Virus record (IMG/VR): IMGVR_UViG_3300031420_000399
DNA length: 64,000 nucleotides
Origin: a virus
Taxonomy: Duplodnaviria; Heunggongvirae; Uroviricota; Caudoviricetes
Direction: 5' to 3' (one strand)
The notes beneath the pieces were generated by a model. That model was not told where the DNA came from. It was given only the letters and a program-made list of their open reading frames with translations, and ran no database searches. The translations under genes were made by a program, and so were the position numbers. Shown here piece after piece: positions 1 to 64,000 of this stretch. The stretch's first letter is position 1. Each line of letters opens with the position of its first letter.

Positions 1-240
1 GGCGTGCCCCTGGGAATTCTCACGGTGCTCGCTATCCTAGAAATTCTCTTCACACACTAAGAAAAGCCGATCACATCCTAAGATTCGTGATATAGTGGCT
101 TCGTACCAATTCCGTAGACAGAAGGACAACCGATTCCCATGACCTAAACCTCCTAATCGCCATCAGTTGAATACCCCGCGTAGTCGGCATCCCGCTGCTG
201 CGTGCTCACTGGGTATTCCTGTATGGAAAAGGAGACTGTC

Positions 241-390
241 ATGGTCGTAATCTACGGACAGAACCGCACCGTTCGCGAGTTCGGAAAGAACTCGGACGGT
301 GCCTGGGAGCTCGCCAGGGAGCTCATGGCCAAGGGCCACGAGGTCTGGGTGCTCGACAAGAGGAGGGCCCACCTCCTCGAGCTGGCCTAA
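241..390 (+). CDS. small hypothetical protein
   Basis: AAGGAG SD 6 nt before ATG 241; in frame with track ORF 202..390. Confidence 0.7.
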   Translation: MVVIYGQNRTVREFGKNSDGAWELARELMAKGHEVWVLDKRRAHLLELA

Positions 391-507
391 GGGCCGGCTC
401 CATGGCCCGGAGCTGGCATGATGCCCCAGCTCCGGGTCACCCCTCTTTCGAAGCGGCCGACAGCAGCCTACCATCGCTGTCGGCCGCTTCCCCTTTGAGC
501 TAGAGGT

Positions 508-1032
508 TCATCGAAAGCGCAGAGAGTGGACCCGAATCAGCCACTCAGGCTCGATGGTCCAGATGCAGGCCTGGACAAACTCCTTGTGCTCAACTGAGAG
601 AACCTTCTTCCAGCTTTCCCGGGTCTCTACCTCGGAGAACTCCCGGTCCCAGTTGGAGATCCATTCCTCCTCGCCCATGATCGGTACGCCGTTGAGGATC
701 GCGTGCCAGTCATCGAAATCTGAGAGTAGGACGAGCTCATCGGGGACCTCGAGCTCGAGGATCACATCGCTTTTAGCGTAGTGGCTGAAGAGCATCCGAC
801 GGCGGTCTGGCTTCTGAATCTCGCCGTGGTTGCGAGCCCATGCCCAAACTGGAAGCCTCACGCCGGCAGGCCGGGTAATCCTCTCGTCCATCTCCACCAT
901 GAGCCAGTCGTAGGCCCTTTGGAATTCCTCACAGAGTCCGTAGTGGGCAGAGAGCTCAGGGTCACAGATAAAGCGCAGGCCTGAGCAAAGCTCGTCAGCT
1001 ACTTCTTTCGGCTGGAAGGACCAGAGTTTCAT
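508..1032 (-). CDS. DUF3841 family protein
   Basis: Motifs LWSFQP, AYDWL..EM, PVWAW, KPDRR, LELEVPDELVLLSDFDDWHAILN. Confidence 0.8.
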   Translation of the reverse strand: MKLWSFQPKEVADELCSGLRFICDPELSAHYGLCEEFQRAYDWLMVEMDERITRPAGVRLPVWAWARNHGEIQKPDRRRMLFSHYAKSDVILELEVPDELVLLSDFDDWHAILNGVPIMGEEEWISNWDREFSEVETRESWKKVLSVEHKEFVQACIWTIEPEWLIRVHSLRFR

Positions 1033-1142
1033 GAGTTACACTTTCTGTTCGCTCCCTATCCTACCACAGGTGTTGCGATCTTCTGCGCCAGATCCGCCAC
1101 TGTCTGCGATAGGATCATCGAGTAGACCCCAAGGAGCAACAA

Positions 1143-1643
1143 ATGAGCCATCTCGAAGCATTCCTCGGTCAGAGTAGAGCAGAACCCGAGCCTCGAGGAA
1201 CCATCGTGAGCTATGTGGCCTCTGTGACCGCCATTCTTCTCGGACTGGGCCTTCTCCTCGGCGGCTTCTTCCTCAAGTCCTACTCGGAGCGGGACGCAAA
1301 GATCTACAGCGCAAGTGCCACGGCGACGGTGCTACCGGACGCTCGGACCGAGGGCGCAGAGGGTGCCGTCGTCTGCACCCTTGAGTACAGCTTCAAGAGC
1401 AGTTCGGGAGAGAGCGTCAAGAGCGAAGCTGCTGAGCTCGGAAGTTGCACGAAGATCCAGGATGCTGGCGCTGAGCGTACTGTCTACTATGACCCGCAGC
1501 ACCCTCAGGTCTCTACGCTCACTGATCCGATGGAGTCACAGGATGGGAACTGGATCTACCTCAGCGGCACGGGACTCGTAGTAGGTGTCGGTGGACTGAT
1601 CGCTTTCCTCTGGCTTCGGCTCCGAAGGACCTCCAAGAGCTGA
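1143..1643 (+). CDS. DUF3592-like membrane protein
   Basis: N- and C-terminal TM helices flanking a beta region with VYYDPQHP; SD AAGGAG. Confidence 0.6.
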   Translation: MSHLEAFLGQSRAEPEPRGTIVSYVASVTAILLGLGLLLGGFFLKSYSERDAKIYSASATATVLPDARTEGAEGAVVCTLEYSFKSSSGESVKSEAAELGSCTKIQDAGAERTVYYDPQHPQVSTLTDPMESQDGNWIYLSGTGLVVGVGGLIAFLWLRLRRTSKS

Positions 1644-1697
1644 CTCAAGATCATCAGTTTGCAACTGTCTCCAGAACCGTGTACAGTTAGGAACATC

Positions 1698-2159
1698 ATG
1701 AAGCACACCGAATCAGGCTCCGAAAAGAGCAGGCAGCGACCGCGTCCGCAGCGTCGAGCCTACCTCGATGACCTCGGTCCGGACTACGAGCCCAGTACTC
1801 AGTGGACCAACGCTCCGGACGGCAAGGACGATGAGCGCCAGCGCCGCTGGGATGCGCAGCAGAAGCGCTACGGCTTCGACAGCCGACAAACCTGGTCGCT
1901 GCACAGCTCCATGGCCGAACTCCTCTACGAACGACTCCAGGCCTACCTCCCCCTCGCGGACAGCTACATCAACCTCGAGCTCCACAAAATCAGCTTCGAG
2001 GGTGAGGAACTCACGCAGAAGGAAGCCATCGAGAAACTCATCGGCTACTGCCGGGATGCCCTCGCGCCGGACTTCGATGGCGAAGACTACCAGGGAGAGA
2101 AGGCAGCTGAGAAGCTCTGGAATCTCTGGGCAGTACTCCACCCCTACATGTGGTGGTGA
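1698..2159 (+). CDS. phage-type hypothetical protein
   Basis: Promoter TTGCAA-N17-TACAGT upstream; GFDSRQTWSL..LYERLQAY motif resembles common phage hypotheticals. Confidence 0.75.
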   Translation: MKHTESGSEKSRQRPRPQRRAYLDDLGPDYEPSTQWTNAPDGKDDERQRRWDAQQKRYGFDSRQTWSLHSSMAELLYERLQAYLPLADSYINLELHKISFEGEELTQKEAIEKLIGYCRDALAPDFDGEDYQGEKAAEKLWNLWAVLHPYMWW

Positions 2160-2259
2160 GCGAGCAAAGGTGCTCCTAACGGCAGAGAGCGCCGATCCCC
2201 GGGTTGTGGTGGCCCAGGTGGATCGGCGCTCTTTCGCTGTGTGCTCTAGGAGTCGGGGT

Positions 2260-2799
2260 TTAGAGCTCTGAGGCGGACTCTGGAGTCACAATGGAGACAG
2301 ACTCTGTGAAGAACTTCTCCTCGGCCTCCTGGTCGGGTGTCCAGTCACAACCCGGAATGATCCAGTTGCCGTCCTTGAGTCGAAGACCCAGAGGCTCTCC
2401 GTCCTGGATCTCAACGATGGATCCCACGGGGAGCTCTCGGATCGACTCCTCTGCGGAGTTTGACCACTCTCTGTAAGCATTGGTCTCAAGATCCACATCA
2501 TCGTCGTACTCAGGCTTCTCCTCAAACTTCTCGATGAGCGGTGTCTTGCGACCCTTGAGCCCGATGGTAGTTCCAGGTTCGATGAGCTGCTCTGTGGCGA
2601 TCTTGAAGAGATACTCGTCGTCCTCTTCGTCGCCGCCGAAGACCCAACCCCAGTTGCCCCGGTTGGGTCCCGAGTTCTGGAAGAGATGACGATAGCCGAT
2701 GTTGGTGGCATTGCCTTCCTCGTCCTGGAGAAGAATCACGGCATCCTCGGGCAGCGCCTGTGCCTCCTCGACAGTGAGCTTCTTGAGTCGCTTGACCAT
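2260..2799 (-). CDS. acidic hypothetical protein
   Basis: Typical codon bias; AGAAGGAG-type SD on the minus strand. Confidence 0.75.
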   Translation of the reverse strand: MVKRLKKLTVEEAQALPEDAVILLQDEEGNATNIGYRHLFQNSGPNRGNWGWVFGGDEEDDEYLFKIATEQLIEPGTTIGLKGRKTPLIEKFEEKPEYDDDVDLETNAYREWSNSAEESIRELPVGSIVEIQDGEPLGLRLKDGNWIIPGCDWTPDQEAEEKFFTESVSIVTPESASEL

Positions 2800-2910
2800 G
2801 TTGATCTCCTTCTGTGGGCAGCTGTCTGTGAGCCTAGATTACCGACGGTTGCGAGGCTACTCGGAATCATGTAGGATCAAACGAATCCATGTCGAAACTG
2901 AGGATTAGCT

Positions 2911-3228
2911 ATGAGTCAGACCAGCCAGATCGTTCCCGTTGAGCACAGCACTCGAAGCATCACCGAGGAAGTGCGATTCCGGCTCCCCAAGGAGGGAACG
3001 CCTGAGATCGGCTTCCGCTTCGGCTCCCATGCTCCTCGCTACGGGAAGATCAGACGGACCACCGACAGCCACGGAGCGCACACTGCTCTCTCCCTGGAGA
3101 CGGCCGACGGTCAGTACTCCCAGATCGCCGATTTCTTCGACGAGGAGATCGCTGAACTCCTCCCTCCGGAGCTCAGCGCAGCAGTGCTGGGGCTCCTCAA
3201 GAACACGGCCATCACCGATGAGAACTGA
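2911..3228 (+). CDS. hypothetical protein, paralogue family A copy 1
   Basis: EEVRF..PEIGF..LPPELSAAVLGLL shared with the next two ORFs. Confidence 0.8.
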   Translation: MSQTSQIVPVEHSTRSITEEVRFRLPKEGTPEIGFRFGSHAPRYGKIRRTTDSHGAHTALSLETADGQYSQIADFFDEEIAELLPPELSAAVLGLLKNTAITDEN

Positions 3229-3235
3229 GAGTACC

Positions 3236-3565
3236 ATGCAGATCAATAAGCTCCACCGCAACATGGGCCGAGATCGAGTCGACGGCTCGACTTCTGAGGA
3301 GATCTGGTTCGAGATCCTCGGCGGTGATGCTCCGGAGATCGACTTCAAGAGCCTGATCTCCGAACAGATCCAACGGCCCACCAGCGGGCTCGTGATCCGA
3401 GAGGTCGATGGTGCCGGCGAGGAGCTCATCACCATCTCTCTAAGCGTGGCCGATCATCGTAGCGGCTACTTCGGATCCGTGCGCTTCCAGGGCGATGAGA
3501 AGATTCTCTCGGAGCTTCCCAAGGAGCTCCGAGAGCCCATCATCGCACTTCTCTCTCCGCGCTGA
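3236..3565 (+). CDS. hypothetical protein, paralogue family A copy 2
   Basis: ATG 3236; EEIWF..PEIDF..RPTSG..LPKELREPIIALL. Confidence 0.8.
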   Translation: MQINKLHRNMGRDRVDGSTSEEIWFEILGGDAPEIDFKSLISEQIQRPTSGLVIREVDGAGEELITISLSVADHRSGYFGSVRFQGDEKILSELPKELREPIIALLSPR

Positions 3566-3620
3566 ACCATCCTCAGCCCACCATTCGTCCATCCCACAGA
3601 CTGCAGAAACTGAGAACACC

Positions 3621-4313
3621 ATGAGCGCCCCCTTCCCGATTTCACCCTTGATCAGTGGCTCCAGGGAGCACATCGAGGAGAAGACCTTCTTCACTCTGGC
3701 GGCAGATGTTCCAGAGATCACCTTCGGAGCTTGGAAGCGCAGGCCCACGAGTGGTACGGTCAGAAGACTTCAGACACCCGATCTCACCTATACTTCGATC
3801 CAGTTCACCACGGAGGTCCCCTCGAAGCTCGGAGGCAGCGAGGCGCTGATCATGGTCTACACTGATGGGGACATCGATGGGCTGCCAGCAGAGCTCAGAA
3901 GCGCCATCCTCGGATTGCTCAGGAGTGAGCGAGAGAAGCCGGCTCCAGTAGCCTCCGTGGGTGTTCCCCTCCTGAAGGCGTTCAAGAACGGCCAGGACTC
4001 CTACGGCGATGTGTCTGCGACCCTGGGCAAGCCCGGCACAGCAGATCAGGATCGGATCATCTTCTGGAGCGGTGACGGTGAATCCATGGGCGCACTCCTG
4101 AGCTGGGTCGAGGGGCTCGGCGACGAGTACCTCGTGGTCATCGATGAGGCGAAGTTCCCGGACCTGGCAGCAGACCTAGAGGCAGCTGCTCTCCTCGAGG
4201 ATGCGGAGATCGGCTTCAAGTGGAGGGGGAAGACCGTCTATCGGGCCCTCGGCCAGCTCCTTGAGCTCACGGGCTCTGGCTTCGAAGAGAGCGATGAGGA
4301 CGCTGGCTACTAG
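3621..4313 (+). CDS. hypothetical protein, family A copy 3 plus C-terminal extension
   Basis: ATG 3621; EEKTF..PEITF..RPTSG..LPAELRSAILGLL. Confidence 0.8.
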   Translation: MSAPFPISPLISGSREHIEEKTFFTLAADVPEITFGAWKRRPTSGTVRRLQTPDLTYTSIQFTTEVPSKLGGSEALIMVYTDGDIDGLPAELRSAILGLLRSEREKPAPVASVGVPLLKAFKNGQDSYGDVSATLGKPGTADQDRIIFWSGDGESMGALLSWVEGLGDEYLVVIDEAKFPDLAADLEAAALLEDAEIGFKWRGKTVYRALGQLLELTGSGFEESDEDAGY

Positions 4314-4376
4314 TTTAGGCTCTAGCGATAGTTTCGCTCTGTAGCACGGTGCTATCCAGAACGAAAGAAGAGACCC

Positions 4377-4829
4377 ATGAGCCTTCGCAGTACCCTCGCA
4401 CTTCATCTCGGAGATCTCAAGGAGAACTCGAAAGACCGAGAATACCGGCTAGAGGCTGAGTTTGGATCTCCCGAAGAGCTCCCCAAGGGCACGCTCAAGA
4501 AAGATGCGACCGGACAGGTCTGGCGCACCGCTCGGGGGAGGCGTAGGAGCTACTGGGAACGCACGCTCACGCTGACTCCAGCAAAGCGCGAGCGCATGTT
4601 TCAGCTCATCGGCTATGGTCGCTGGGTAGCTCTAGCCTATCTCCTCCTGTGGGCTGCCCTCTACGCGCTCAGGCTCGACACGCTCTCCGTGAACGGCATG
4701 GTGCCGACCTATGTGCTAGGTGAGGCAATCAACAGCATCGCTCCAGTCTTCATCCTGATCTTCTTCCTGCGCTTCCTCCCTAAGACAGCGGCGGTCCTCG
4801 AGGAAGATGGCACGATTTCACCGGTCTGA
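4377..4829 (+). CDS. membrane protein
   Basis: Two C-terminal hydrophobic segments. Confidence 0.75.
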   Translation: MSLRSTLALHLGDLKENSKDREYRLEAEFGSPEELPKGTLKKDATGQVWRTARGRRRSYWERTLTLTPAKRERMFQLIGYGRWVALAYLLLWAALYALRLDTLSVNGMVPTYVLGEAINSIAPVFILIFFLRFLPKTAAVLEEDGTISPV

Positions 4830-4895
4830 TCGGGGTGCTGAACTGACCTGCTGAAGGTGTTGTGGTCAGCGTAGATCGGGTGTATTGTTCTCCCC

Positions 4896-5171
4896 ATGGA
4901 CACCCTCGCTTCTTCGACCACCGTCTACTCCACCTCCACGGGTGAGGTCAACCCCTTCATCGCGCTTCCCGAGGCGCTCCAGGGTGAGCTCCAGTTCATC
5001 CAGCTCGCTAACGGCGAGTCCGTCTGGGCCGAAAGCCAGTCGGACTACATGGACGAGTATTGCTTCGTCTGCTCCCGGGCCACCGACCACCGCGGTGAGC
5101 ACGACGACCTGGTGGAGCAGGGGCTCGCCACCTACAGCCGCACCACGGCTGAGGTCTACCGGAACTACTGA
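4896..5171 (+). CDS. hypothetical protein with CxxC..H..H motif
   Basis: Leaderless promoter TTGTGG..TATTGT; YCFVCSRATDHRGEH. Confidence 0.8.
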   Translation: MDTLASSTTVYSTSTGEVNPFIALPEALQGELQFIQLANGESVWAESQSDYMDEYCFVCSRATDHRGEHDDLVEQGLATYSRTTAEVYRNY

Positions 5172-5187
5172 GCTCTAGTCTCTACTC

Positions 5188-5228
5188 AGGAGGGATGGCC
5201 GAATCTTAGGATTCCGGTCGTCCCTCCT
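5188..5228 (+). terminator. hairpin terminator
   Basis: AGGAGGGATGGCCG...CCGGTCGTCCCTCCT directly after the 5171 stop. Confidence 0.75.
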
Positions 5229-5291
5229 CTCATTTTCGCTCCTACGGTACAATGCTCACTGACCACAAGCTTTGAGCATCGAGGAGAGTCC

Positions 5292-5765
5292 ATGGTTCAG
5301 CACATCACTGTGTTCTGCCCTCACGGCAAACAGATCAGTACCTGCGAATGCCCGTCCCCTCTTAAGGCCGTGGTAGTTCGGCCGGTCTGTTCTCTCGACT
5401 GTATTGATCCGCGGTCCGGTGGCTCAGAAGCCTCAGAAAGCCCATCCACCCAACAGGCTACAGCTATTGGGTCAGCCGAACCTAGGACCGATCGTCCAAG
5501 GAGCCGGATCGCAGCCCTGCAAGCGCTGAAATCAGACTGGATCCTCCTCAACGAATACCTTGCGACGAGCGAAGACACTGAAATCTTCGAGCCACTTGAG
5601 CTCGTGCTCAACAGCCTTTGCGAGCTAGCAGCAATCAGGCTTGATAGCGTCGATCCTCGAACTCGAATCACAGCCGAGGGAAGAGTCGAAGATGCCCTGA
5701 GAGGTAGCTACGCCGACCAGATTCATGCGATCAGAGAAGATGGCGAAGGTACCCCGTTGCAGTAG
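5292..5765 (+). CDS. hypothetical protein with Cys-rich N-terminus
   Basis: SD GAGGAG; CPHG..CECP..C..C. Confidence 0.7.
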   Translation: MVQHITVFCPHGKQISTCECPSPLKAVVVRPVCSLDCIDPRSGGSEASESPSTQQATAIGSAEPRTDRPRSRIAALQALKSDWILLNEYLATSEDTEIFEPLELVLNSLCELAAIRLDSVDPRTRITAEGRVEDALRGSYADQIHAIREDGEGTPLQ

Positions 5766-5791
5766 CTTCTCGGATGTGATAGATTCGATCC

Positions 5792-6121: not shown

Positions 6122-6123
6122 CC

Positions 6124-6309
6124 ATGGGTCAGCGCAATCAGGACTGGAAGCGAACTGAGAGCGAGCGCCCCGAGGATGGCGTGGAGGTTCTCACCATGGA
6201 CTCAGGTGGCCACGAGCAGACCCTGAAGCTCAGCGGAAACCTCTGGTGGTTCCCGGACGGCTCCATGTATGTCTACTACACCCCGAAGATGTGGCGCTAC
6301 ATCGGCTGA
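6124..6309 (+). CDS. DUF551-like small phage protein
   Basis: WKRTESERPEDGVEVL..W..YYTPKMWRY. Confidence 0.55.
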   Translation: MGQRNQDWKRTESERPEDGVEVLTMDSGGHEQTLKLSGNLWWFPDGSMYVYYTPKMWRYIG

Positions 6310-6605: not shown

Positions 6606-6608
6606 CCG

Positions 6609-7080: not shown

Positions 7081-7086
7081 GAAATC

Positions 7087-8517: not shown

Positions 8518-8802
8518 ATGAGCAACTCCGCCTCCGTCGCCGAGATCCTCGGTCCCGACGCAAAGTTCGATCCCACCACACCCTTCGGCCAGTGGGACGA
8601 TGTGGCGAAGCAGTACGAGAACACCACCGATGTGCTGATCTTCAACTACGACAACATGTCTGTCTCCTACGCCGAGGGCTGGGGCGCCGGTAGCCCGACT
8701 CCGATCTCCGGTGACACCCTGGCCCGCTTCAAGGACATGGTGAGCGAGAAGCCGAGGCTCAAGGACCACAAGTACCCGGGCAAGGCGAAGCCCGTTTCCT
8801 GA
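8518..8802 (+). CDS. hypothetical protein
   Basis: SD GAGGAG; strong C3 bias. Confidence 0.85.
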   Translation: MSNSASVAEILGPDAKFDPTTPFGQWDDVAKQYENTTDVLIFNYDNMSVSYAEGWGAGSPTPISGDTLARFKDMVSEKPRLKDHKYPGKAKPVS

Positions 8803-8998: not shown

Positions 8999-9445
8999 AT
9001 GAGTCAGAAGCAGATCGACACCGTCAAGGCGTTCCTCGAGGCCCAGGGTCTCATCGAGGGAGAGCACTACGAGATCGGTGCTGGCGAGTCCGGCACCGAC
9101 AACCTGAGCATCACCATCGAGCTCGCTCAGGATCCCCGGCCGCTGCCCGAAGAGCTCCTGGCCCACAGCCACATGGACGATGTGGAGCTCGACCGGGCGA
9201 TCTACAAGGGCTGCAGCTACCGTTCCCTGAGCGGGGCCCGGTTCTACTACGCCCTGGGCAACTACGAGAACAGCGAGTTCCGGAAGCTGCCCGCAGTTGT
9301 AGAGCTCGAGGGCACCCTGAAGGACATCCAAACCGCCGAGGCCATGGACGCTTACGATGAGGGGCTCAAGGGCCTCTGGGCGGAATTCCAGAAGACGCCC
9401 CGGATCGCAGAGCTCAACCGGGAGCTCGAGGAGAACTACTTCTGA
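8999..9445 (+). CDS. hypothetical protein, paralogue family B copy 1
   Basis: Leaderless promoter TTGACT-N18-TAAGTT; FLEAQGLIEG..LPEELL. Confidence 0.85.
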   Translation: MSQKQIDTVKAFLEAQGLIEGEHYEIGAGESGTDNLSITIELAQDPRPLPEELLAHSHMDDVELDRAIYKGCSYRSLSGARFYYALGNYENSEFRKLPAVVELEGTLKDIQTAEAMDAYDEGLKGLWAEFQKTPRIAELNRELEENYF

Positions 9446-11597: not shown

Positions 11598-12188
11598 ATG
11601 ACCACCACGCGCCAGACCTTCGGCCCCCTCGTCCATCGATCGCTCCAGGCCTCTGCTCGCTCCGCCCGAGAGATGGCGCGGATCTTCAGCTCCGAAGATG
11701 GCGACATCAGCCCCGAGTACCAGCGTGACTCGGTCTGGACCGAGGACCAGCGCATCGCCCTGGTTCGCTCCTGGCTCATGGGTGTACCGATCCCGGCAGT
11801 GGTGGTCAACGACCGGATCTTCGGCTCCTGGCCCAGGGATCGGACCGGACCTCTCGGCGGCTTCGCCTACGCAGTCATCGACGGCAAGCAGCGCATCGAG
11901 ACGGCCATTGCCTGGTTCGCTGGGGAGTTCGGTGTCCCCGCGTCTTGGCTCCCGGCAGATGTGGTTGAGACCACGGAGGACACCGAGGACGGCCCCTATG
12001 TTCACTACACTGGCCTCGAGGCCAGTGAGCAGCGCCACCAGGCTATGATGTTCCAGCTCCCCACGGTGGAAGCTCAGGTCGCCACGATCCAGGAAGAGGC
12101 CGAACTCTTCTTGCTCCTCAACGGTGCTGGCACCCCGCAGACCGAGGCCAATCTCTCCCAGGCTCAGGCCGTGGCCGAGGGCAACTGA
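11598..12188 (+). CDS. DUF262 (ParB-like; GmrSD/SspE N-terminal type) domain protein
   Basis: PEYQRDSVW..LVRSWLMGVPIP..VIDGKQRIET; leaderless promoter TTGTAC..TACAGT. Confidence 0.85.
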   Translation: MTTTRQTFGPLVHRSLQASARSAREMARIFSSEDGDISPEYQRDSVWTEDQRIALVRSWLMGVPIPAVVVNDRIFGSWPRDRTGPLGGFAYAVIDGKQRIETAIAWFAGEFGVPASWLPADVVETTEDTEDGPYVHYTGLEASEQRHQAMMFQLPTVEAQVATIQEEAELFLLLNGAGTPQTEANLSQAQAVAEGN

Positions 12189-31627: not shown

Positions 31628-32338
31628 TTGGCCATCGTCTACCGAGTGGAAACCCCCGAGGGATTCGGTCCCTACTCGAAGATCGCTCCCGAGCTCACCT
31701 CCCACGAGAATCACCGCAGTCCCAGGGCTGAGGGTATCGAGTTCCCCTACTACTGGTACTTCGGATTCCGGGATCTCAGCCTGCTCACGCTCTGGTTCTC
31801 AGCTGTCGAGCTCGAGGAGCTCAAGGAGTACGGCCAGAGCTGGCTCCTGAGCAAGTACGAGGTCCCAGATGACCAGCTCCTGAGCACAGCATACCAGACA
31901 GTCTTCGACCGCCGCAGCTCTCAGTCGAAGCTCCTCGGCTGTCTACCCTTGGACATGCTTGCTGGATCGCCTCGCGGGAGGCTCTCGAAGGAGCGAATCG
32001 CTGAGCTCGAGGAGAGCTTTCAGCCCCATGAGTACTGCGAGCCACGACCTCGCTTCGGCCTGTTCGAGAAGACCAAAACGCTCGGGCTCGACGAGGGGAA
32101 GTATACGCTTCAGGAGATCATCGAGAGCCTGGAGGAAGGGCGCTACTACAGCGCCGTACTGAAGTCGGAGGCCCGAGAGGATCCTGAGGGCTATCCCATC
32201 AGGTTCTTCCTCTTCAGGGGTGGATCGCTCTACCCACTGAGAGGAGCCAAGTTCCAGCCTTACTCAGCTGAGTTTCAGCCCCTCTCGGTGGAGATAGCTC
32301 TAGCCGACAAGCTCGACCTGAGCACCTTCGGAGCTTAG
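31628..32338 (+). CDS. phage-type hypothetical protein
   Basis: VYRVE..GFGPY..FGF..L..WF motif seen in phage proteins; TTG start with SD. Confidence 0.75.
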   Translation: MAIVYRVETPEGFGPYSKIAPELTSHENHRSPRAEGIEFPYYWYFGFRDLSLLTLWFSAVELEELKEYGQSWLLSKYEVPDDQLLSTAYQTVFDRRSSQSKLLGCLPLDMLAGSPRGRLSKERIAELEESFQPHEYCEPRPRFGLFEKTKTLGLDEGKYTLQEIIESLEEGRYYSAVLKSEAREDPEGYPIRFFLFRGGSLYPLRGAKFQPYSAEFQPLSVEIALADKLDLSTFGA

Positions 32339-33084
32339 CCCTCGTCAGCCTCGGCGCTATCTGCAGCGCTGTCGTCAGCTACAGCAGGTGTCTGTGGCTC
32401 GAAGCGCAGCTTGAGCGCATCGTAGATCATCCTCAGGTCCGCCTCGTCCTCATAGTAGGAACTAGGGTCAAGGACGAACTTGATAGGATTCGGCACTGTC
32501 GGGAGGCCATTGTCATCGAAGATATAGCGGTCCCGATAGGAGCGGTTGATTTCATAGGGCTGCATCACCAGATTGTCGTCGGTGAGGGGCTTTCTTGGGT
32601 CCTTGTGGCCGCGCTCGAACTTACCCTTACTCATGGACTCGAAGAGTCTTCGCGAGCGGCTCACACTCGCATCTCTTCCAGCATCTGTGGTCAGATCCTG
32701 TGCGGAGTGAAGGTACTTGTCGCTGAAGGTGAGCGCTGCAAAGCCGTAAGCAGGGCTCTTCTCGGGGGTCTTGTCGAGCTTGATGCCCACTCGCTCAATC
32801 TTGTTGGCCCACTGGATGGAATCGCCACTAGTACGGCCGAGCTTCTCTCCGATTGCCGTCAGGTGAGAGCGGTCGAAGGCTAGACCGACATTGGCAGCGA
32901 AGAGCGCGATGATCTGATGGCTGATGTTCCGATCGCTTGGCTTCGAGGGGAGCTTCACGGTCGGATTCTTAGCGATGAACTTCTGCAGACCCTGTGGCCA
33001 AGATGTGGCCTTGGTGAAACCTGCGAGAACAGCGGCGAACTGCGCGTCTGTTACCTTCTGAAGAATGCGATTGTTTTGTACCAT
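32335..33084 (-). CDS. orphan HNH/His-Me-finger-like endonuclease (restriction-enzyme-like)
   Basis: ERGHKDP..DDNLVMQP..NRSYRDRYIFD; AGAAGGA SD before ATG 33084; opposite strand, AT-rich upstream; no MTase in the window. Confidence 0.6.
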   Translation of the reverse strand: MVQNNRILQKVTDAQFAAVLAGFTKATSWPQGLQKFIAKNPTVKLPSKPSDRNISHQIIALFAANVGLAFDRSHLTAIGEKLGRTSGDSIQWANKIERVGIKLDKTPEKSPAYGFAALTFSDKYLHSAQDLTTDAGRDASVSRSRRLFESMSKGKFERGHKDPRKPLTDDNLVMQPYEINRSYRDRYIFDDNGLPTVPNPIKFVLDPSSYYEDEADLRMIYDALKLRFEPQTPAVADDSAADSAEADEG

Positions 33085-33420
33085 GATGTTATTTCCTTCT
33101 GCCATTCAAGGCGTTCGTTAAGGATGATTTCCTTACATTGAATATCGGCATAAGTACGGTCAAAACTGCATTTCCAGACAAATAGTTTGTGAGTTACATG
33201 TGAAACTGCGCTTTGCGGCTATTTCATCCTAGAGCAGCGTAGCTGTCGTACCGAAGGCATCCGGTGAAGCGCTATGGGGCCATCCCAAAGACAGCAGGAG
33301 CCTGCCTGAGGCGGCTACCCCATCAGCACATGCGACGAATCGCGCTCAGTGTTCTCGGGGCTTAGAATGGAGACCTAAGAGACCGTTGCGCAGGCAGAGC
33401 GCAGGGTATAGGATCGAACC

Positions 33421-57935: not shown

Positions 57936-57959
57936 TCAGCAACCACCAAGGAGAACACC

Positions 57960-58346
57960 ATGGGGCTCAGATCGAGCATCCTCACATTCGAGTCCGAATC
58001 GCTCAGGCTGGTTCCGGGCGTAACTGAGACGGCGCTCTTCAGCGCAATCGATCAGATCGGACCGGATTTCAGCGAGGAGCTGCGCTACTTCTTTGACCTT
58101 GAGATCGAAGACGACGAGCTTTCGATGACGACCACCGGAGAGAGTGGCAAGGGCTACGATCTCGTCGAAGCCCTCGAGGGACTCGTCGCCTTACTCCGAA
58201 CGCTGTCCGCAGATGAGGATCGGGGATTCCGATTCCGCTTCGAGATCCTCGGCGAAACCGGCGACTGGAGGCTCATCCAAAGCGACGGTAGAAGGCTCTG
58301 GGTCATCCCCGGTGTGGTGAGCTACCCCGGTGCTCCTAGCTGGTGA
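57960..58346 (+). CDS. hypothetical protein
   Basis: AAGGAG SD. Confidence 0.8.
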   Translation: MGLRSSILTFESESLRLVPGVTETALFSAIDQIGPDFSEELRYFFDLEIEDDELSMTTTGESGKGYDLVEALEGLVALLRTLSADEDRGFRFRFEILGETGDWRLIQSDGRRLWVIPGVVSYPGAPSW

Positions 58347-58416
58347 TCTCCGGGAGGCTGCAACAGTGCAGTTGATAGTAGGTCTGCTCGCATAGCACCT
58401 ACATAGGAGAATCATC

Positions 58417-59382
58417 TTGGTTCCAAAGCGCAGGCAGTTTCGCAGGATCGCGGCAGTAGCTCTAGCCCTAGGCGCTGTGGGCTGTGCGATAGCTCCAGCA
58501 GCCTCAGCAGTAGACTACCAGCCCAACTTCGGTGTCAAGTCCGTCTACACGGATACTCCTTCTATAGTCGGATTCAGAGGATACTTCCACTCGTCGGGCA
58601 GCACCCCTGGAGGCAGTGGATCCCCCAGTGATCCTACGCCGGGGACTGGATCCGGAGGCGACGGCACCGATCCAGGGACGGGAACTCCAGGGACCGATCC
58701 GGGCACGGGAAATCCAGGGACCGATCCCAGCGGTGAACCCTACACCCCTGGAAGCTGTACTCTCACGAGCACGATCAGCAGCGACTTCACCCAGACCGGA
58801 ACCATGGACGGCACCAACTACCTGAGCCCCCGGGAGTTCGGATCGACCTCGAGCGACAATCCCTACGGCTACTCCAAGTGGATCGATCATGCGATGGCTT
58901 CAGATGCTGTCATCACTGTCGGACAACCGAAGGTCTTCCTCCCCGATGTGCAGGTAGACACCTATGATCCAGCCACCAACAGCTACGCTGAAACCCAGAG
59001 CTACCAGAATGTGAGCTTCGATGAGTTCGATCCCTACATCGGTAGCGCTAAGGCCGTTCCAGCAGGCACGATCAATCCCGCTAAGTTCCCCTCCTTCTAT
59101 AAGGGAGAGAAGAGAGCTGCGGCCAACTTCGGCTCCATTCAGATCTCGGGGATGGATACGAGTAAGGTTCCTGATCTAGTCAACAGCCCCTCCTTCTGGG
59201 CCAAGGTCAATGCTCCATTCCCCTCGGATAGCCCAGCTCCCGGGGACAAGCAGTACTCGGTGAACAGCAACCTCATGGTGGTCGACTACCCAGTCAGCGT
59301 CCAGTGGCCAGCTGGCTCTGAGTACGCAGGCTGCTCAACCACAACCGACGCGGCCTACACCTTCGCCTTTGGAGCAGCCTGA
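58417..59382 (+). CDS. secreted protein with Gly-Thr-Asp-Pro repeats
   Basis: AGGAG SD, TTG start; signal peptide ..APAASA; GTDPGTG(T/N)P repeats. Confidence 0.8.
   Translation: MVPKRRQFRRIAAVALALGAVGCAIAPAASAVDYQPNFGVKSVYTDTPSIVGFRGYFHSSGSTPGGSGSPSDPTPGTGSGGDGTDPGTGTPGTDPGTGNPGTDPSGEPYTPGSCTLTSTISSDFTQTGTMDGTNYLSPREFGSTSSDNPYGYSKWIDHAMASDAVITVGQPKVFLPDVQVDTYDPATNSYAETQSYQNVSFDEFDPYIGSAKAVPAGTINPAKFPSFYKGEKRAAANFGSIQISGMDTSKVPDLVNSPSFWAKVNAPFPSDSPAPGDKQYSVNSNLMVVDYPVSVQWPAGSEYAGCSTTTDAAYTFAFGAA
58664..58730 (+). repeat. about three copies of an in-frame 24-nt repeat (PGTDPGTG)
   Basis: ACCGATCC recurs every 24 nt. Confidence 0.7.
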
Positions 59383-59423
59383 TCCAGTTGTGCTGAGGCC
59401 CGGCGGCGTGTAATGTTCGATCC

Positions 59424-59843
59424 ATGAACACGACTCGAAACCGCCGGGCCTCAGTCATTGGAGCCATCGTCCTCGCCGCTGTGGTCGGCACAACCCTGGC
59501 AGGCTGCTCAGCAGAGCTCAGCCGCGAAGATGCGGAGGCATCGACCCACAAGGTCATCGAGACCGACCGCAAGTTCTGGAGCGGAGAGAGCTGGGCCTAT
59601 GTGGACGGCTCAGGCAAGAAGATCCCCCTTTCGAAGGACTGCCAGGAGGGCTTCTTCTCTGAGCTCTGCCGGAGCTCCAAGAACGGGCTGATCAAGTTCC
59701 AGTACTCCAGCGGCAAGTACGGGATCAGCTCTGAGTCCATCACCGTCGACGGTGTCAAATGGGAGGCAGACTGCACCCAGAAGCCCGGATTTTCTGGAGG
59801 CGACTATGTCTGCGCGCCCCTGGCAGATCGCCGGGACAAGTAG
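59424..59843 (+). CDS. lipoprotein, family C
   Basis: LAGC lipobox; leaderless TTGTGC..TAATGT promoter; YVDGSGK..C..C.SSKNGLIKFQY..ITVDG. Confidence 0.85.
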   Translation: MNTTRNRRASVIGAIVLAAVVGTTLAGCSAELSREDAEASTHKVIETDRKFWSGESWAYVDGSGKKIPLSKDCQEGFFSELCRSSKNGLIKFQYSSGKYGISSESITVDGVKWEADCTQKPGFSGGDYVCAPLADRRDK

Positions 59844-59930
59844 AGAGCGTTAGAGCATCTGAGACCAGGTCCCCGCCGGTGAATGACAACCCGGCGAGGG
59901 ACCTGTTCCAATTGGAGAACCTTCTCGGCT

Positions 59931-60221
59931 TCAGTCTGCCTCTCGCTCGCTCGAGAGATAGCTCAGCGTCGACTCATCGGCAGCCTTGCCGGCAGCCTGT
60001 GCATCGCTGCTCTTGATCCCCCAGCCGCTCGCCCGGCTCTTGGGTGCCCTTCTGATCTCCTGAGTGTAGACTTCCCACCAGCCGTTGTAGGCTCGGACCA
60101 GAGTCTCTTCTCCGAGATCTTCAGCGGCAAGGGCCTCCCTGAGCTTCTCCGAAGCGTTGTTCTGCTTCGCCAGGACCTGCGCTCGCCAGAGCTTAGCCTC
60201 TGCGATGATGTCACGGGTCAT
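59931..60221 (-). CDS. small hypothetical protein
   Basis: AGGAAGG SD on the minus strand. Confidence 0.6.
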   Translation of the reverse strand: MTRDIIAEAKLWRAQVLAKQNNASEKLREALAAEDLGEETLVRAYNGWWEVYTQEIRRAPKSRASGWGIKSSDAQAAGKAADESTLSYLSSEREAD

Positions 60222-60364
60222 CTTGGACTTCCTTCCTGAGCCTTAGAAAAGACCACTCGAAGTCCATGGTACATGGATCGAACCCCGTGATCGCCCTGGA
60301 GCATTTCCTGTAGAGACCTCCGAGGGCAGTTGACAGGATCGTTCGGTGGTGTAGTGTTGGACCT

Positions 60365-60634
60365 ATGAACACCAACTCGACTGTCCACCACACCGCAGCC
60401 TCCCCGATCTACAAGAACACCCAGAAGGTCGGCAACTTCGCCGCCTACGCCTTCTGGTTCTGCATCCCGAACCTCCTCGTGGGCTTCGTCGGCATCGTCC
60501 TGACCATGGACGCGCCTGCAGTCCTCCACAACTTCGTCGGCCAGTTCTTCGCCAGCGTGGTCGTGGCCATGATCCTCTCGGTGGCCACCATGAAGGTCTC
60601 CTACGATCTCCTCAAGAAGATGCGCAGGATCTGA
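60365..60634 (+). CDS. small membrane protein
   Basis: Leaderless TTGACA(60330)-N16-TAGTGT promoter; two TM helices. Confidence 0.85.
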   Translation: MNTNSTVHHTAASPIYKNTQKVGNFAAYAFWFCIPNLLVGFVGIVLTMDAPAVLHNFVGQFFASVVVAMILSVATMKVSYDLLKKMRRI

Positions 60635-60646
60635 CCATCCCGCTTA

Positions 60647-60681
60647 GAGGGCCCTCCCTGGACATCCGGGCGAGGGCCTTC
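60647..60681 (+). terminator. imperfect hairpin terminator
   Basis: GAGGGCCCTC..GAGGGCCTTC after the 60634 stop. Confidence 0.5.
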
Positions 60682-61215
60682 TTCCATTGGGCTGCAAGTG
60701 TGACCGGGGAGCAGACAGCACGGCCAATCAGCAGACAGCAGGATCAGATCTGAGCGCCGACTACCCCATTCGTGCAGAACGACTCATCCACACCTTCAGG
60801 CTCCCTCAGGCTGTCTCCTAGAGCCTTCGAACGGAGTCGATGCGTAGGCTCAGCTCACTTCCTCAGTGGCCGTTCAGGCTACCTCCAGCTATCTCAGTCC
60901 GATGCTACTACTTCGACGCTCACTACATCTGTAGATAGGTAGCTAGAGTCATACACTCTAGAGATTTGCTCCCCTGCTTTGCTGAACAAGTGCTATGATC
61001 TATGCCGTGTGTGTTTTTCGAGCTCGTCGCCACTTCTCCGACTCCGGGCTAACTCAACGATCGACCGCTGATACCCGAAATTTCGGTCTCATTTGGTCGC
61101 TACTTCTGAGGTACCCAGTCGCTACTCGGCCGCCGCTTTCTGCTCTAGTGCGCCAGGCGTGCGGCCATAGCGCGATAGTAGGCTAAGAACGAGCCGGCTA
61201 CAGAGGGGATACACC

Positions 61216-61641
61216 GTGCGTCTCACTAAGATCGTGGCCATCCTTGTGGGGATCATCGTTCTCCTGGGGCTGGGCTTCTCCCTGGCGATGAACGCCCAGG
61301 CTAAACCCACGATCTGGGGTCTCATCGGCGCTCCGAAGATCGCCAGCACTGAGAATCTAGTCGAGAAGTCCAGCGATGTGAGCTATCCCTGGAAGGCCTA
61401 CTCTGGAGACACGGCCATCGGCCTTCTACCCTGCGGTGATCTCACTCCAGATCAGCCCGAAGATGAGCGCTACGGCGAGTGGTGCTCGGACGACGGCAAG
61501 GTGAAGCTCACTCGGACCAAGGAGTCTACGGTGCTCAACTACGATGGCACCAACTTTGCCTACGGCTGTAGCGCCGGAAGCTCCCTCCCCGGTGCTCTCC
61601 CCGAATGCTCCATCGATCCCTGGGGTAGCTTCTTCCGCTGA
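61216..61641 (+). CDS. membrane-anchored extracytoplasmic protein, possibly family C related
   Basis: N-terminal TM; WCSDDGKVKL..LNYDG..C..C. Confidence 0.7.
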   Translation: MRLTKIVAILVGIIVLLGLGFSLAMNAQAKPTIWGLIGAPKIASTENLVEKSSDVSYPWKAYSGDTAIGLLPCGDLTPDQPEDERYGEWCSDDGKVKLTRTKESTVLNYDGTNFAYGCSAGSSLPGALPECSIDPWGSFFR

Positions 61642-61694
61642 TCCTCCAGTGCTTAAACCATTGCGCTCAGCTGAAAACCATGTAGGTTGAACCC

Positions 61695-62198
61695 ATGAAC
61701 GATTCCGTAGCATGGCCGCCGGCTCACCTTCCAGCTGAGCTCAACGCCATCGCCACAGCAGCTGACCTCATCCGCCAGGAAACCGATCTCCAGTGGAATG
61801 GCGGCGCGGGCGTCTGCCTCGGTGTGAGTGCCTATCTGAGCTACCTCCTCGAGGATCTGGACATCGATCACAGGCTCGCCAACGGTATCTACACGGACGA
61901 GCACGGGGAGCACCCCCACTGGTGGATCGAGACCAGCTCCGGCTGGATCCTCGATGCCTCCCGGGGTCAGTTCGGCCACGGGGATGAGTACCGTTCTGGC
62001 GTGGTCGGCCGCTTCGACCGGGCTTACAGCCTGCGCGCATCCTGGGAACCCGGCCACGGCACCATCGAACTCGTCGAGGCAGAGCTCCAGCGCTCCTTCA
62101 GCGACCAGGGCGAGGCCTTCGACTACCTCGACCTCTGCGAGAACATCTGGGCTGAGGTCGGAGACATGGTGACCCGAGGCATCGTTTCCGTCGGCTAA
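61695..62198 (+). CDS. transglutaminase/papain-like Cys-His-Asp protein
   Basis: GVCLGVSAYL..HWWIE..ILDASRGQF; leaderless TTGCGC..TAGGTT promoter. Confidence 0.6.
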   Translation: MNDSVAWPPAHLPAELNAIATAADLIRQETDLQWNGGAGVCLGVSAYLSYLLEDLDIDHRLANGIYTDEHGEHPHWWIETSSGWILDASRGQFGHGDEYRSGVVGRFDRAYSLRASWEPGHGTIELVEAELQRSFSDQGEAFDYLDLCENIWAEVGDMVTRGIVSVG

Positions 62199-62262
62199 GG
62201 AAGATCAGGACTCCAAGCCCGAAGCTGTTGACAGCCTCGGGTGTCCATGTAGGATGGGAACC

Positions 62263-62655
62263 ATGAACGCCATCGCTACCGCCTCTGCCCTGGACTTCTC
62301 CGAGCTCCAGCTCGAAGCGAAGCTCGTCGCCCGGGACTTCACCGGGCTCAAGGGTTTCAACATCCACGACTTTCATCACGAGACCAATCTCCGCACGGTG
62401 ACCGGCTGGGAGCTCACGCTCCAGGACGAGAGCATCGAAGGAGATGGCTCGTACATGTTCCTGCGCTTCGCCCTGACCGTGGAGTTCAGCCGGGGCCGGG
62501 CTGGCATCTGGGATACCACCGCGGTGCTCTGGATCAGCGAGAACGAGGGCTTCGTGGAGCTCGGCGAGATCCCCGGCGACGAGGGCATGGCCTACCGGAT
62601 GGACCCCAAGGACTTCGAATCGCTCTTCCGGAAGCTCAACATCAAGCAGCACTGA
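62263..62655 (+). CDS. hypothetical protein
   Basis: Leaderless TTGACA(62228)-N16-TAGGAT promoter places the start at ATG 62263. Confidence 0.85.
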   Translation: MNAIATASALDFSELQLEAKLVARDFTGLKGFNIHDFHHETNLRTVTGWELTLQDESIEGDGSYMFLRFALTVEFSRGRAGIWDTTAVLWISENEGFVELGEIPGDEGMAYRMDPKDFESLFRKLNIKQH

Positions 62656-62669
62656 AAGGTACTAGAATC

Positions 62670-63032
62670 ATGGCAACTGACCTACATCTCGCCCGGGCTC
62701 GAGCTCGAGTCGCCCTGGCGAAGCTCAGTGGAAAGACCGATCTTCCGGATCGCACCCTGAAGCTCGCTGAAAGGGACTACACCCCCTCGCCGACCGCACT
62801 TCAGACTGTGGATCAGGTCCTCGGTGAGCCCGAGAACTCCCTCCACGGCTACATCGCCGACGCCTTCACGGTGCTCGCTGAGGAGCTCGCAGAGGCCAGG
62901 AGGGCTCAGACTCGTATCATGGAGCTCGTCTCCGATGCGGGCAACTGGGACAACCCCACTGACACCCTGGAGCACATCGGTGACACCATCAACTCGGAAC
63001 AGTACCCGGTCTGGGAGCGCTACGAGGGCTGA
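62670..63032 (+). CDS. hypothetical protein
   Basis: Typical codon bias. Confidence 0.8.
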   Translation: MATDLHLARARARVALAKLSGKTDLPDRTLKLAERDYTPSPTALQTVDQVLGEPENSLHGYIADAFTVLAEELAEARRAQTRIMELVSDAGNWDNPTDTLEHIGDTINSEQYPVWERYEG

Positions 63033-63076
63033 GAGCAGTTCGCTTTCAGTTCCCCACCAAAGCTAAGGAGAATCAC

Positions 63077-63415
63077 ATGAAGGACTTCGACATCTCGAAG
63101 CTCGACCCTTCGAAGTTCGATCCCTCAAAGATCGATCTCGATCCGACCAAGCCTCTAACCTGGGTCCTGGCAGCAGCTGTTCTCATCGTACTCCTCGTCC
63201 TCACGACCATCGTCGTGATCGCAGTGCAGATCACGCGCTCGATCCTTGAGCGCCGCGGCCAGCGAAAGGCCATGGAGAGAGCAGAGGCTCGGAACCTCGA
63301 GCGTCAGAGCGAGCCCCTTGCTGCGCCACTCGAGGGTTCCCTGGCCGCAAGCAAGCTCAATCTTCCCGACTCTTCCAAGCCGACGGTCTGGCCCCTGGAG
63401 CCGATCGGATCCTGA
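63077..63415 (+). CDS. single-pass membrane protein
   Basis: TAAGGAG SD; short (S)K(L/F/I)D repeats then a TM helix. Confidence 0.8.
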   Translation: MKDFDISKLDPSKFDPSKIDLDPTKPLTWVLAAAVLIVLLVLTTIVVIAVQITRSILERRGQRKAMERAEARNLERQSEPLAAPLEGSLAASKLNLPDSSKPTVWPLEPIGS

Positions 63416-63571
63416 GTAGGCACTGGGCTGTGGTACTCTGGTCCATGTACGGGGACCTACAGCCCGTAGCCGCCTGCCTAGTCCGAGAGGGTTCGGCAGG
63501 TAGTAGACTCACCTATCCGACACGCCGGCAAAGAGAGTGACCGCAGCAGTAGTGCGGTCAAATCGATAGAG

Positions 63572-63823
63572 TTGCCGACGACAACCAGTTCTAAGGAGAA
63601 CACCTTGCCACTCTCATCCCTCATCATCGTCATCGTCTGCGGTCTCGTCGCAGTCGGTGGAATCATCGTGCTCGTGATTCGCAACAGGAAGCCCAAGGGT
63701 CCCGCAACTCCGATCCGTCCTGCTGCAACTCCCCGCGCCGGTGGTCAGGCTGGTCCTGCTCGTAGGAACTACGGAGCCGCTGGTACCGACACTCAGCCCA
63801 CGAGGCGCAACCGCGAGAGCTGA
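63572..63823 (+). CDS. single-pass membrane protein
   Basis: TM helix with a basic Pro-rich tail; start may be the TTG after AAGGAG (about 63605). Confidence 0.6.
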   Translation: MPTTTSSKENTLPLSSLIIVIVCGLVAVGGIIVLVIRNRKPKGPATPIRPAATPRAGGQAGPARRNYGAAGTDTQPTRRNRES

Positions 63824-64000
63824 TTAGGCTCCGGAGGCTGTGAGCACAGTCCCCGGATCGCCTGCTCCTAGCTGCACCGCAGACTGCCAGCAGCAACGGC
63901 AGAGGGCCAGAGCACCTTGGGCCTATTCGACGCCGGTCTATACCCATCTTCCAGTCGTGTAGATGAGCATGGCCTCCGGTATACGGCAAGCGGCGACAGA

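Follow-up and report, generated by a model that had tools for sequence, protein, structure and literature searches.

Complete purges of 4-bp words occur in some phages, and the producer of the restriction enzyme PacI is known to contain neither a cognate methylase nor the site. Rusinov et al. (2018, PMC6286503) described restriction-site avoidance in virulent phages. PacI belongs to the HNH type IIP enzymes, and structurally characterised HNH restriction enzymes, e.g. KpnI and PacI, generate 3' overhangs (PMC4081073). Chloroviruses (PBCV-1 and relatives) encode restriction endonucleases that are thought to degrade host DNA minutes into infection (PMC7019647). Tsp49I from Thermus is a 3'-overhang ACGT/ cutter according to a reference in PMC10665251. 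Our literature search on ACGT avoidance in phages and on solitary phage restriction enzymes returned nothing specific.

The huge uncultured phage analysed here shares features with each of these systems. As in phage restriction-site avoidance, a short palindrome, ACGT, has been lost by silent substitutions over the genome and its relatives; unlike in the known cases, the purge is absolute in huge phages that form a deep clade (with contigs to 673 kb), and the phage carries a methylase-less restriction-enzyme homologue. With PacI, it would share a restriction enzyme of the HNH class that has no companion methyltransferase, and self-protection via site absence. However, PacI is bacterial and its 8-bp, AT-rich site is rare by composition, whereas the carrier here is a phage and the putative site a 4-mer purged hundreds of times. 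The predicted virus-encoded, frequent-cutting restriction enzyme is reminiscent of the chloroviruses, yet their R genes always adjoin a cognate methyltransferase and their DNA is methylated, whereas none was found in the phage DNA screened here and protection would come from site loss. Besides, the chlorovirus host is algal, the host here bacterial. The word probably recognised by the selecting nuclease is that of Tsp49I and TaiI (ACGT/) and of MaeII and HpyCH4IV (A/CGT).

We analysed a stretch of 64,000 nt of this phage's DNA (the window), in which the following features are relevant:

1 to 64000, no strand: DNA of a huge uncultured phage, free of ACGT (0 against 230, 93 or 54 expected), with dense small ORFs mostly on the plus strand and 59.7% GC
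8596 to 8604, plus strand: GAC-GAT-GTG (Asp-Asp-Val), an example of the synonymous switch, with GAT before Val (from the codon statistics)
9176 to 9184, plus strand: second GACGATGTG example of the synonymous switch
32335 to 33105, minus strand: P0013, a solitary restriction-endonuclease homologue of 256 aa with a predicted N-terminal winged helix and C-terminal HNH (beta-beta-alpha-Me) domain (from alignments, model and AFDB)

An earlier note on this DNA had reported that ACGT is missing window-wide, and the exact count over the 64,000 nt is indeed 0. The couple of hundred sites it had expected from composition agree with the zero-order figure of 230; a Markov-2 model predicts 93, and the observed count is far from this expectation as well (Poisson log10 P(0) = -40). 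All remaining 4-bp palindromes are present, as likewise noted before (CTAG 117, GTAC 148, CGCG 155, GATC 621, TCGA 650, etc.). In the 83 confident CDS, NAC codons never precede Val (0/49, NAT being used every time), while NAC makes up 49-88% elsewhere. This bears out the previously described shift from GAC/TAC/CAC to GAT/TAT/CAT before Val, for which the GACGATGTG examples had been placed at exactly the right positions. Threonine ACG before T (0/63; 23% elsewhere) and arginine CGT following an A-ending codon (0/54; 9% elsewhere) are absent, too, so that codon switching away from ACGT is seen in all three frames. When synonymous codons were shuffled with proteins and codon usage held constant, 54.3 +/- 5.0 ACGT (range 37-66) arose in the 40 kb of CDS, whereas the real sequence has none. 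The 11.4 kb of the window outside ORF calls contain 0 ACGT vs 43 expected, and the amino acid level is also affected, with [D/N/H/Y]-Val dipeptides being depleted.

The flanks are ACGT-free as well (L006, +9.4 kb; L008, -8.9 kb; 18 kb together). The second of these flanks carries DnaB and ParA. The genome measures at least 193 kb and relatives reach 346-673 kb; of the replicon, ACGT was counted in the window and the 18 kb of flanks, and the relatives were added. Across ∼171 kb of non-redundant clade DNA (window, flanks and at least eight related contigs), ACGT occurs 0 times vs 614 (zero-order) or 266 (Markov-2) expected, and is the only word among all 4-6-mers that falls strongly short of its Markov expectation. 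The related huge-phage contigs are up to 673 kb long, and their orthologues are only 53-86% identical to those of the window. In a distant relative, a 573-kb contig of 46% GC, ACGT is normal (59 vs 62 expected). Equal depletion in relatives, named in the earlier note as a sign of lineage-wide bias, was thus found, though only inside the phage clade, where it looks like maintained selection and not like neutral bias; ∼800 sampled Actinomycetota genomes were normal apart from one soil MAG. Within the phage clade, the purge is absolute and old.

Among cultured phages, megablast and tblastn returned no match for the window DNA, a 484-aa protein, an HD protein or P0013. RNase H and DnaB gave distant matches (Vibrio jumbo phages, ∼39%; actinophage DnaB, ∼35%), too distant to place the phage or its host. 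A search for tRNA genes was negative. The gene content of the phage further includes a GmrSD_N/DUF262-type protein and numerous ORFs of no assigned function.

The earlier note had proposed selection by an ACGT-targeting nuclease encoded by the host or by the element itself; strong selection is well supported, and for the latter option P0013 is a predicted candidate. The database gene call for P0013 starts at 33084. In 19-sequence alignments of its family, G166-H167, N178 and N187 are invariant, and the beta-beta-alpha elements are present in the predicted model. An AFDB cluster search returned entries named HNH endonuclease (E 8e-4; residues 162-235 at an rmsd of 2.9 Å), an Atlas feature search likewise indicated an HNH endonuclease, and hhalign against a Cys4-HNH ORF from one of the Thermus plasmids gave a probability of 95.8. 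These data are consistent with P0013 combining a winged-helix DNA reader and an HNH cutter of a type II restriction-endonuclease family. The motif D-x-IQ-x-x-NK in the putative recognition domain is invariant between the phage and the R-M-linked members, as are the catalytic residues, which suggests that specificity was retained. The family comprises 193 cluster representatives (E<=1e-3), and none of the listed homologues stems from the 573-kb contig with normal ACGT. No family model in Pfam, NCBIfam or PADLOC matched P0013, P0034 or P0035. PDB sequence and profile searches with P0013 gave no real match; a PDB fold search with the whole model yielded a generic winged helix only (Z 5-6) and no significant nuclease, and one with the C-terminal domain only non-significant rows, for Cas9 and the type II restriction endonuclease entry 4l0k.

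In the window and in L005 and L010 alike, the P0013 gene has DUF3228 and T4_Y00F genes as neighbours, and its syntenic position is unchanged in all ACGT-free relatives with a visible locus (window, L005, L010/L025, L011). This conserved synteny and the invariant catalytic and DNA-reading residues argue against a free-standing HNH homing endonuclease; the argument is tempered, however, by the location of the gene on the minority strand and by the small number of loci compared.

Outside the phage clade, the relatives of P0013 come with a partner. All five non-clade homologues examined (P0034, P0035, P0036, P0040, P0043) adjoin a PF01555 methyltransferase, and these partners are 54-70% identical among themselves, forming one orthologous N6/N4 type. 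Judged by sequence, non-phage homologue and methyltransferase constitute a classic type II R-M pair. Two Thermus plasmids carry a remote version of it, in which the HNH core is the same and the methyltransferase is 38-41% identical. Thermus is thus the source both of Tsp49I and of a remote R-M pair of the P0013 family, a circumstantial link. In contrast to all non-clade homologues, P0013 has no adjacent methyltransferase, and we therefore class it as a solitary homologue and not as part of a complete R-M system. None of the 118 ORFs of the window is a methyltransferase according to Pfam, NCBIfam and PADLOC, the screen of this phage genome covering ∼82 kb of at least 193 kb, and the partner methyltransferases had no tblastn match (E<=1) in ∼240 kb of clade DNA. 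When seven methylase-bearing contigs are pooled, ACGT ranks lowest among the 4-bp palindromes (0.73), and it lies below 1 in each of them, a weak pointer to the site of the family. GCGC, however, is depleted about equally in the pool (0.77), and the avoidance is hence not decisive; contigs with paired systems barely avoid ACGT (L012, 91 vs 105; L218, 12 vs 12).

With a little less than an even chance of being right, our best explanation is that ACGT is cut by a solitary restriction enzyme of the phage itself, the genome being protected by the absence of the site. Continuous, near-lethal selection against double-strand cleavage would then keep ACGT out of the clade. The nuclease would cut unmethylated ACGT during infection and, with a site every few hundred bases in normal DNA, could shred the chromosome of the host, rival phages or both. 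The phage genome, having no site, would be immune and need no methylase, its site-free architecture taking the place of modification, while any new ACGT would be cut at each infection, so that not one copy would be left in any relative. Given that only ACGT is strongly depleted among 4-6-mers, an unprotected short-site phage enzyme could only have an ACGT-containing site. Somewhat more tentatively, the clade may use this methylase-free type II enzyme for attack, its own genome, several hundred kb in size, escaping the enzyme through the deletion of all ACGT, and the rare ACGT-free bacteria, e.g. the MAG G030, could represent the converse case, i.e. hosts that purged the word and so escape such phage nucleases.

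In favour of a self-encoded nuclease, we count the clade-wide co-occurrence of the purge with the solitary gene. Against it, this co-occurrence is confounded by phylogeny, one clade being compared with one distant relative. Since complete 4-mer purges are known in phages that merely avoid host enzymes, P0013 may also be a bystander, e.g. a homing-type HNH or a rare cutter. Besides, base modification may serve as protection, and G030 speaks for ACGT pressure at the cellular level.

Classical anti-restriction, whereby a type II R-M system directed at ACGT (of MaeII/HpyCH4IV/Tsp49I specificity) is common among the hosts and the phages removed the sites, has a real though less than even chance of being correct. 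The HNH gene would then be unrelated to the purge or have been captured later from a host system, an ACGT-free genome tolerating R without M. Site avoidance is widespread among phages (PMC6286503), host avoidance accounts equally well for the synonymous, non-coding and clade-wide pattern, and bacteria do have an R-M family of the right architecture. Moreover, G030, a high-GC actinobacterial MAG from soil, is nearly ACGT-free (27 vs 639 expected in 250 kb, i.e. ∼96% purged), which points to cellular selection on the same word. This MAG was the single true match of a screen of GACGTC vs CTGCAG in 401 genomes across the phylum Actinomycetota and 401 in the order of Microbacterium; most genomes flagged by the screen were low in GC and poor in CpG, with ACGT at its Markov expectation. 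(The phylum tally includes six genomes flagged as unpublished, G124, G006, G053, G340, G322 and G092, on which no specific claim rests.) No link between G030 and this phage was established: except for one marginal match it shares no proteins with the phage, and its habitat is soil, whereas the phage runs are from the phyllosphere. Nor did this incomplete MAG yield matches to Cas1, A2, PF01555 or PF00145. The host hunt identified neither a host nor a host R-M system, and family A2 had no loci in GTDB genome_contigs (pattern scan of 185,579 species genomes) or in IMG/VR. Host systems turn over fast, and zero sites in relatives down to ∼53% protein identity would need a very persistent host enzyme; the ∼800 Actinomycetota genomes sampled show no other ACGT purge than that of G030.

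Two further readings are improbable, albeit to different degrees. ACGT might be a functional signal and not a cleavage site, namely the word bound by a non-nuclease protein of host or phage (a silencer, or a signal for packaging or replication) or a word targeted by some non-R-M defence, which we consider unlikely. Nothing direct speaks for it, though the GmrSD_N/DUF262-type protein and the many unassigned ORFs are present. A word of 4 bp is too short for specific signalling, not a single copy is left that could mark a functional site, and palindromic 4-mers lost by silent changes are a hallmark of type II restriction. Highly unlikely is a neutral mutational bias, e.g. m5C methylation of ACGT with subsequent deamination, or an artefact of sequencing or assembly. 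Words with CpG are in general somewhat scarce (CGCG reaches 0.63 of its Markov expectation), but TCGA and CCGG match or exceed expectation, ACGT is exactly zero, and amino acid dipeptides are affected, too. An origin by m5C deamination was rejected, its products ATGT (1.08) and ACAT (1.04) being unenriched. The same sequence was independently assembled by ENA, JGI and Logan, with runs from five studies; the absence of ACGT is thus no assembly artefact. Taken together, the three-frame codon switch, the clean non-coding DNA, the depleted dipeptides and the lack of ATGT/ACAT enrichment make it well supported that selection against ACGT, and not mutation or chance, caused the purge.

If the classical reading holds, this would still be a very clean case of clade-wide restriction avoidance in megaphages, down to amino acid dipeptide usage. 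If instead the phage enzyme cuts ACGT, this would, to our knowledge, be the first phage with a restriction-type self/non-self discrimination that rests on genome-wide site deletion. The deletion of sites would stand in for methylation or base modification and allow cheap destruction of host or rival DNA. A new, hitherto undescribed family of HNH restriction enzymes, with its 193 cluster representatives and a conserved methyltransferase partner, would thereby be defined and be given a specificity. More generally, site avoidance in phages would not always be the footprint of host defence, and purges of this kind could help predict the specificity of orphan nucleases bioinformatically.

A direct count returned no ACGT in the 64,000 bases of the window (59.7% GC), as the earlier note had reported. 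Its estimate of a couple of hundred sites expected from composition agrees with our base-composition expectation of 230, and the Markov-2 expectation, which already absorbs the lowered ACG and CGT trinucleotides, is still 93. All other 4-bp palindromes do occur, as had also been stated, the next lowest being CTAG at 0.51 of expectation. The synonymous signature of selection against ACGT that the note had proposed was recovered both as codon-context switches in 83 confidently coding ORFs and in a shuffle test, and its GACGATGTG examples are exact, at 8596 and 9176. In these ORFs, GAC, AAC, CAC and TAC never precede a Val codon (0/49), the T-ending synonym being used every time, and outside that position they make up 49–88% of usage. 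Likewise, Thr ACG is absent before T (0/63 vs 23% elsewhere), as is Arg CGT after an A-ending codon (0/54 vs 9% elsewhere). Synonymous-codon shuffles that held each protein and the total codon usage fixed gave 54.3 ± 5.0 ACGT (minimum 37), against none observed, and the 11.4 kb outside ORF calls contained none of 43 expected. The absence of ACGT is due to selection. Avoidance reaches the protein level, with 62 Asp/Asn/His/Tyr-Val dipeptides in the window's coding sequences vs 147 expected (Asn-Val 3 vs 28, His-Val 6 vs 21, Tyr-Val 13 vs 33, Asp-Val 40 vs 66), likely through disfavour of the rare T-ending codons. Separately, the window has 194 copies of GAGCTC where composition predicts 20. In 154 of them the word is read in frame as GAG-CTC (Glu-Leu), a codon pair ∼2.3-fold over the codon-frequency product, and the excess is a codon-pair or dipeptide effect rather than a repeated motif.

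The purge extends to the flanks, 8.9 kb ahead of the window and 9.4 kb beyond it, and to relatives with 86% and 71% identity in the 484-aa marker protein, all with zero ACGT. Ten more loci, reached through the nuclease family described below and including pieces of a 346-kb and a 673-kb contig, add 105 kb with 0 ACGT vs 369 (zero-order) or 166 (Markov-2) expected. Pooled, the non-redundant clade DNA amounts to 171 kb with 0 ACGT vs 614 and 266, respectively. The comparison of 4-mers and 6-mers with a Markov expectation, suggested in the earlier note, revealed no other 4-, 5- or 6-mer comparably depleted in this DNA; AT-rich words top the zero-order depletion list because of codon usage. A distant relative on a 573-kb contig (46% GC, marker protein 42% identical) has normal ACGT (59 vs 62).

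The window itself carries more than 110 small ORFs in a row, mostly on the plus strand, with few recognisable domains (RNase H, DEDDh exonuclease, HD, R2K ATP-grasp, FtsK-like ATPase, DUF3228, T4_Y00F and GmrSD_N), and no tRNA genes were found in it. DnaB and ParA genes lie upstream, and identical sequence occurs on 45–193 kb contigs from phyllosphere and plant metagenomes. Contigs of 178, 346 and 673 kb harbour relatives, which makes the clade one of huge phages. Distant DnaB matches are enriched in actinophages, the only independent hint on the host. One gene encodes a module otherwise known from restriction enzymes:

11598-12188, plus strand: phage-encoded protein bearing GmrSD_N (DUF262; E 7e-15), a domain that forms the N-terminal module in modification-dependent (type IV) restriction enzymes

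The candidate nuclease gene is a different one:

32335-33105, minus strand: P0013, 256 aa

Searches with P0013 gave 22 close homologues and, with exhaustive HMMER, 193 cluster representatives; none of the curated families of Pfam, NCBIfam or PADLOC matches the protein. In its AlphaFold model (pLDDT 81), a winged-helix domain at the N terminus (VIA Z 5–6 to OmpR/PhoB-type DNA-binding domains) is followed by a C-terminal beta-beta-alpha domain with an invariant E-x-G-H-x-x-P...N...Q-P-x-x-x-N. AlphaFold DB cluster searches returned entries named HNH endonuclease (E 8e-4 over most of the protein; rmsd 2.9 Å over residues 162–235), and an Atlas feature search placed HNH families at lead level (0.87); PDB searches gave no significant match. 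The proteins that match best in structure, AFDB A0A6C0BRF6 and A0A6C0CEV2 (E ∼1e-10, 21–22% identity over ∼220 residues), are unnamed; the winged-helix plus HNH architecture thus extends beyond the groups examined here. The gene is syntenic in every relative whose locus is visible. Across phage and restriction-modification (R-M)-linked members, the catalytic residues are invariant, as are D-x-IQ-x-x-NK, W36, R79 and Y120, which together form a probable recognition motif.

All five homologues examined outside the phage clade (P0034, P0035, P0036, P0040 and P0043) directly adjoin the gene of a DPPY-containing DNA methyltransferase of the N6/N4 type (PF01555), the two genes often being convergent and overlapping. 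The surroundings of these pairs are unrelated, one being a bacterial-looking contig that also encodes MurJ and PGI, and the paired methyltransferases are orthologous to one another (54–70% identity). The same enzymes share 38–41% identity with a methyltransferase that two Thermus plasmids carry downstream of an unannotated ORF with the HNH core (hhalign probability 95.8%):

L215 (pTCCB09), 3425-4243: 'hypothetical protein', followed directly by the gene of a site-specific DNA methyltransferase
L216 (pTthSNM1-7d), 3401-4249: 'hypothetical protein', followed directly by the gene of a site-specific DNA methyltransferase

Both ORFs have a Cys4 HNH motif related to the P0013 family and are probably unannotated restriction endonucleases. 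We regard gene neighbourhood as decisive for the predicted nature of the family: with members beside orthologous methyltransferases, the Thermus pair included, it appears to be a genuine type II R-M family, undescribed in that no curated family matches it. Within the phage clade, the R gene seems to stand alone: family searches assigned no methyltransferase to any of the 118 window ORFs, the flanks and the loci of relatives have none in their precomputed Pfam annotations, and tblastn of six partner methyltransferases against ∼240 kb of clade DNA yielded nothing at E ≤ 1. On the pooled methylase-bearing contigs, ACGT is the lowest 4-bp palindrome (0.73), with GCGC close (0.77).

Some contigs with paired homologues avoid further sites. 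L015 (Logan ERR13731163, 7.25 kb, 36% GC) has 0 CATG vs 22–24 expected and also few ACGT, GTAC and GGCC, several sites being avoided together. The bacterial-looking ENA contigs L012–L014 (∼120–129 kb, 45% GC) have 2 GGCC vs 21–53 expected, with CCGG also low, a strong avoidance separate from that of ACGT.

An active type II enzyme without its methylase would be tolerable only if the carrier DNA were site-free or otherwise modified, and ACGT is the single short word missing from the 171 kb of clade DNA. The parsimonious model, to which we give close to an even chance, is that P0013 recognises and cuts ACGT, that it scrubbed the genome of this site and keeps it scrubbed, and that the phage, protected by site absence, could cut host or rival DNA without needing a methyltransferase. 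Chloroviruses package restriction enzymes thought to act likewise on host or rival DNA, yet always carry a methyltransferase (PMC7019647), whereas none was found in the phage-clade DNA searched. Structurally known HNH restriction enzymes produce 3′ overhangs (PMC4081073), and Tsp49I, named in a reference within PMC10665251 as a 3′-overhang ACGT/ enzyme, comes from Thermus, the genus whose plasmids bear a remote P0013-family member. These overhangs, Tsp49I and the ratio of 0.73 are circumstantial evidence that fits an ACGT specificity of P0013.

Avoidance of an ACGT-specific restriction system of the host would account for the purge equally well and is the default reading for such patterns (PMC6286503); we consider it a substantial possibility, somewhat below an even chance. 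A hybrid is natural too, in which a phage rendered ACGT-free by host systems of the P0013 family could then have captured the R gene alone. A non-nuclease signal behind the exclusion appears improbable, and mutation bias or an artefact still more so. The one-step neighbours ATGT and ACAT stand at 1.08 and 1.04, without enrichment, which rules out methyl-cytosine deamination as the origin of the loss.

As a stand-in for the host, Actinomycetota were screened for the ACGT-containing hexamer GACGTC, with its reverse CTGCAG as control. Among 401 phylum-wide genomes (including six unpublished ones that count only toward the normal tally), low GACGTC ratios fell almost entirely in low-GC, CpG-poor genomes. 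In many small members (1.3–2.3 Mb, 28–44% GC; e.g. G160, G251, G063 and G225), GACGTC was 20–60-fold below CTGCAG. As ACGT in such low-GC genomes equals its Markov expectation, the deficit is attributable to CpG and codon effects of a general kind, not to avoidance of ACGT. None of 401 further genomes from the order containing Microbacterium was ACGT-free.

The phylum screen had one striking exception, G030, a GTDB species genome from a soil actinobacterial MAG (2.0 Mb, 64% GC; loci L150 and L186–L205), with 27 ACGT in 250 kb over 21 contigs vs 830 (zero-order) or 639 (Markov) expected. The sites that are left are concentrated on few contigs, with 7 on L204 and 4 in a 1.1-kb stretch of L199, and its 20 family mates have normal ACGT. 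G030 shows that a cellular genome in Actinomycetota can be almost ACGT-free. No significant protein match connects it to the window, it stems from soil whereas the phage-bearing runs are from phyllosphere, and the MAG, itself incomplete, gave no match for the P0013 nuclease family (A2), PF01555, PF00145 or Cas1. G030 could represent an organism of the host type that the same selective agent acts on, or be unrelated to the phage. Its 23S rRNA gene (L208, G030:C54:1-4938), only 79–86% identical to those of named actinobacteria, aligns to the bacterial LSU model as separate segments, with model positions 566–2044 spread over 2.9 kb, implying a ∼1.4-kb insertion (intron or intervening sequence).

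Restriction-site avoidance is a known phenomenon, and the present observation is a solid and quantitatively extreme instance of it. What is new is an absolute, clade-wide 4-mer purge in megaphages, paired with a conserved, methylase-less member of a hitherto undescribed HNH restriction-enzyme family. This pairing predicts that P0013 would cut ACGT and that the partner methyltransferases would methylate it.
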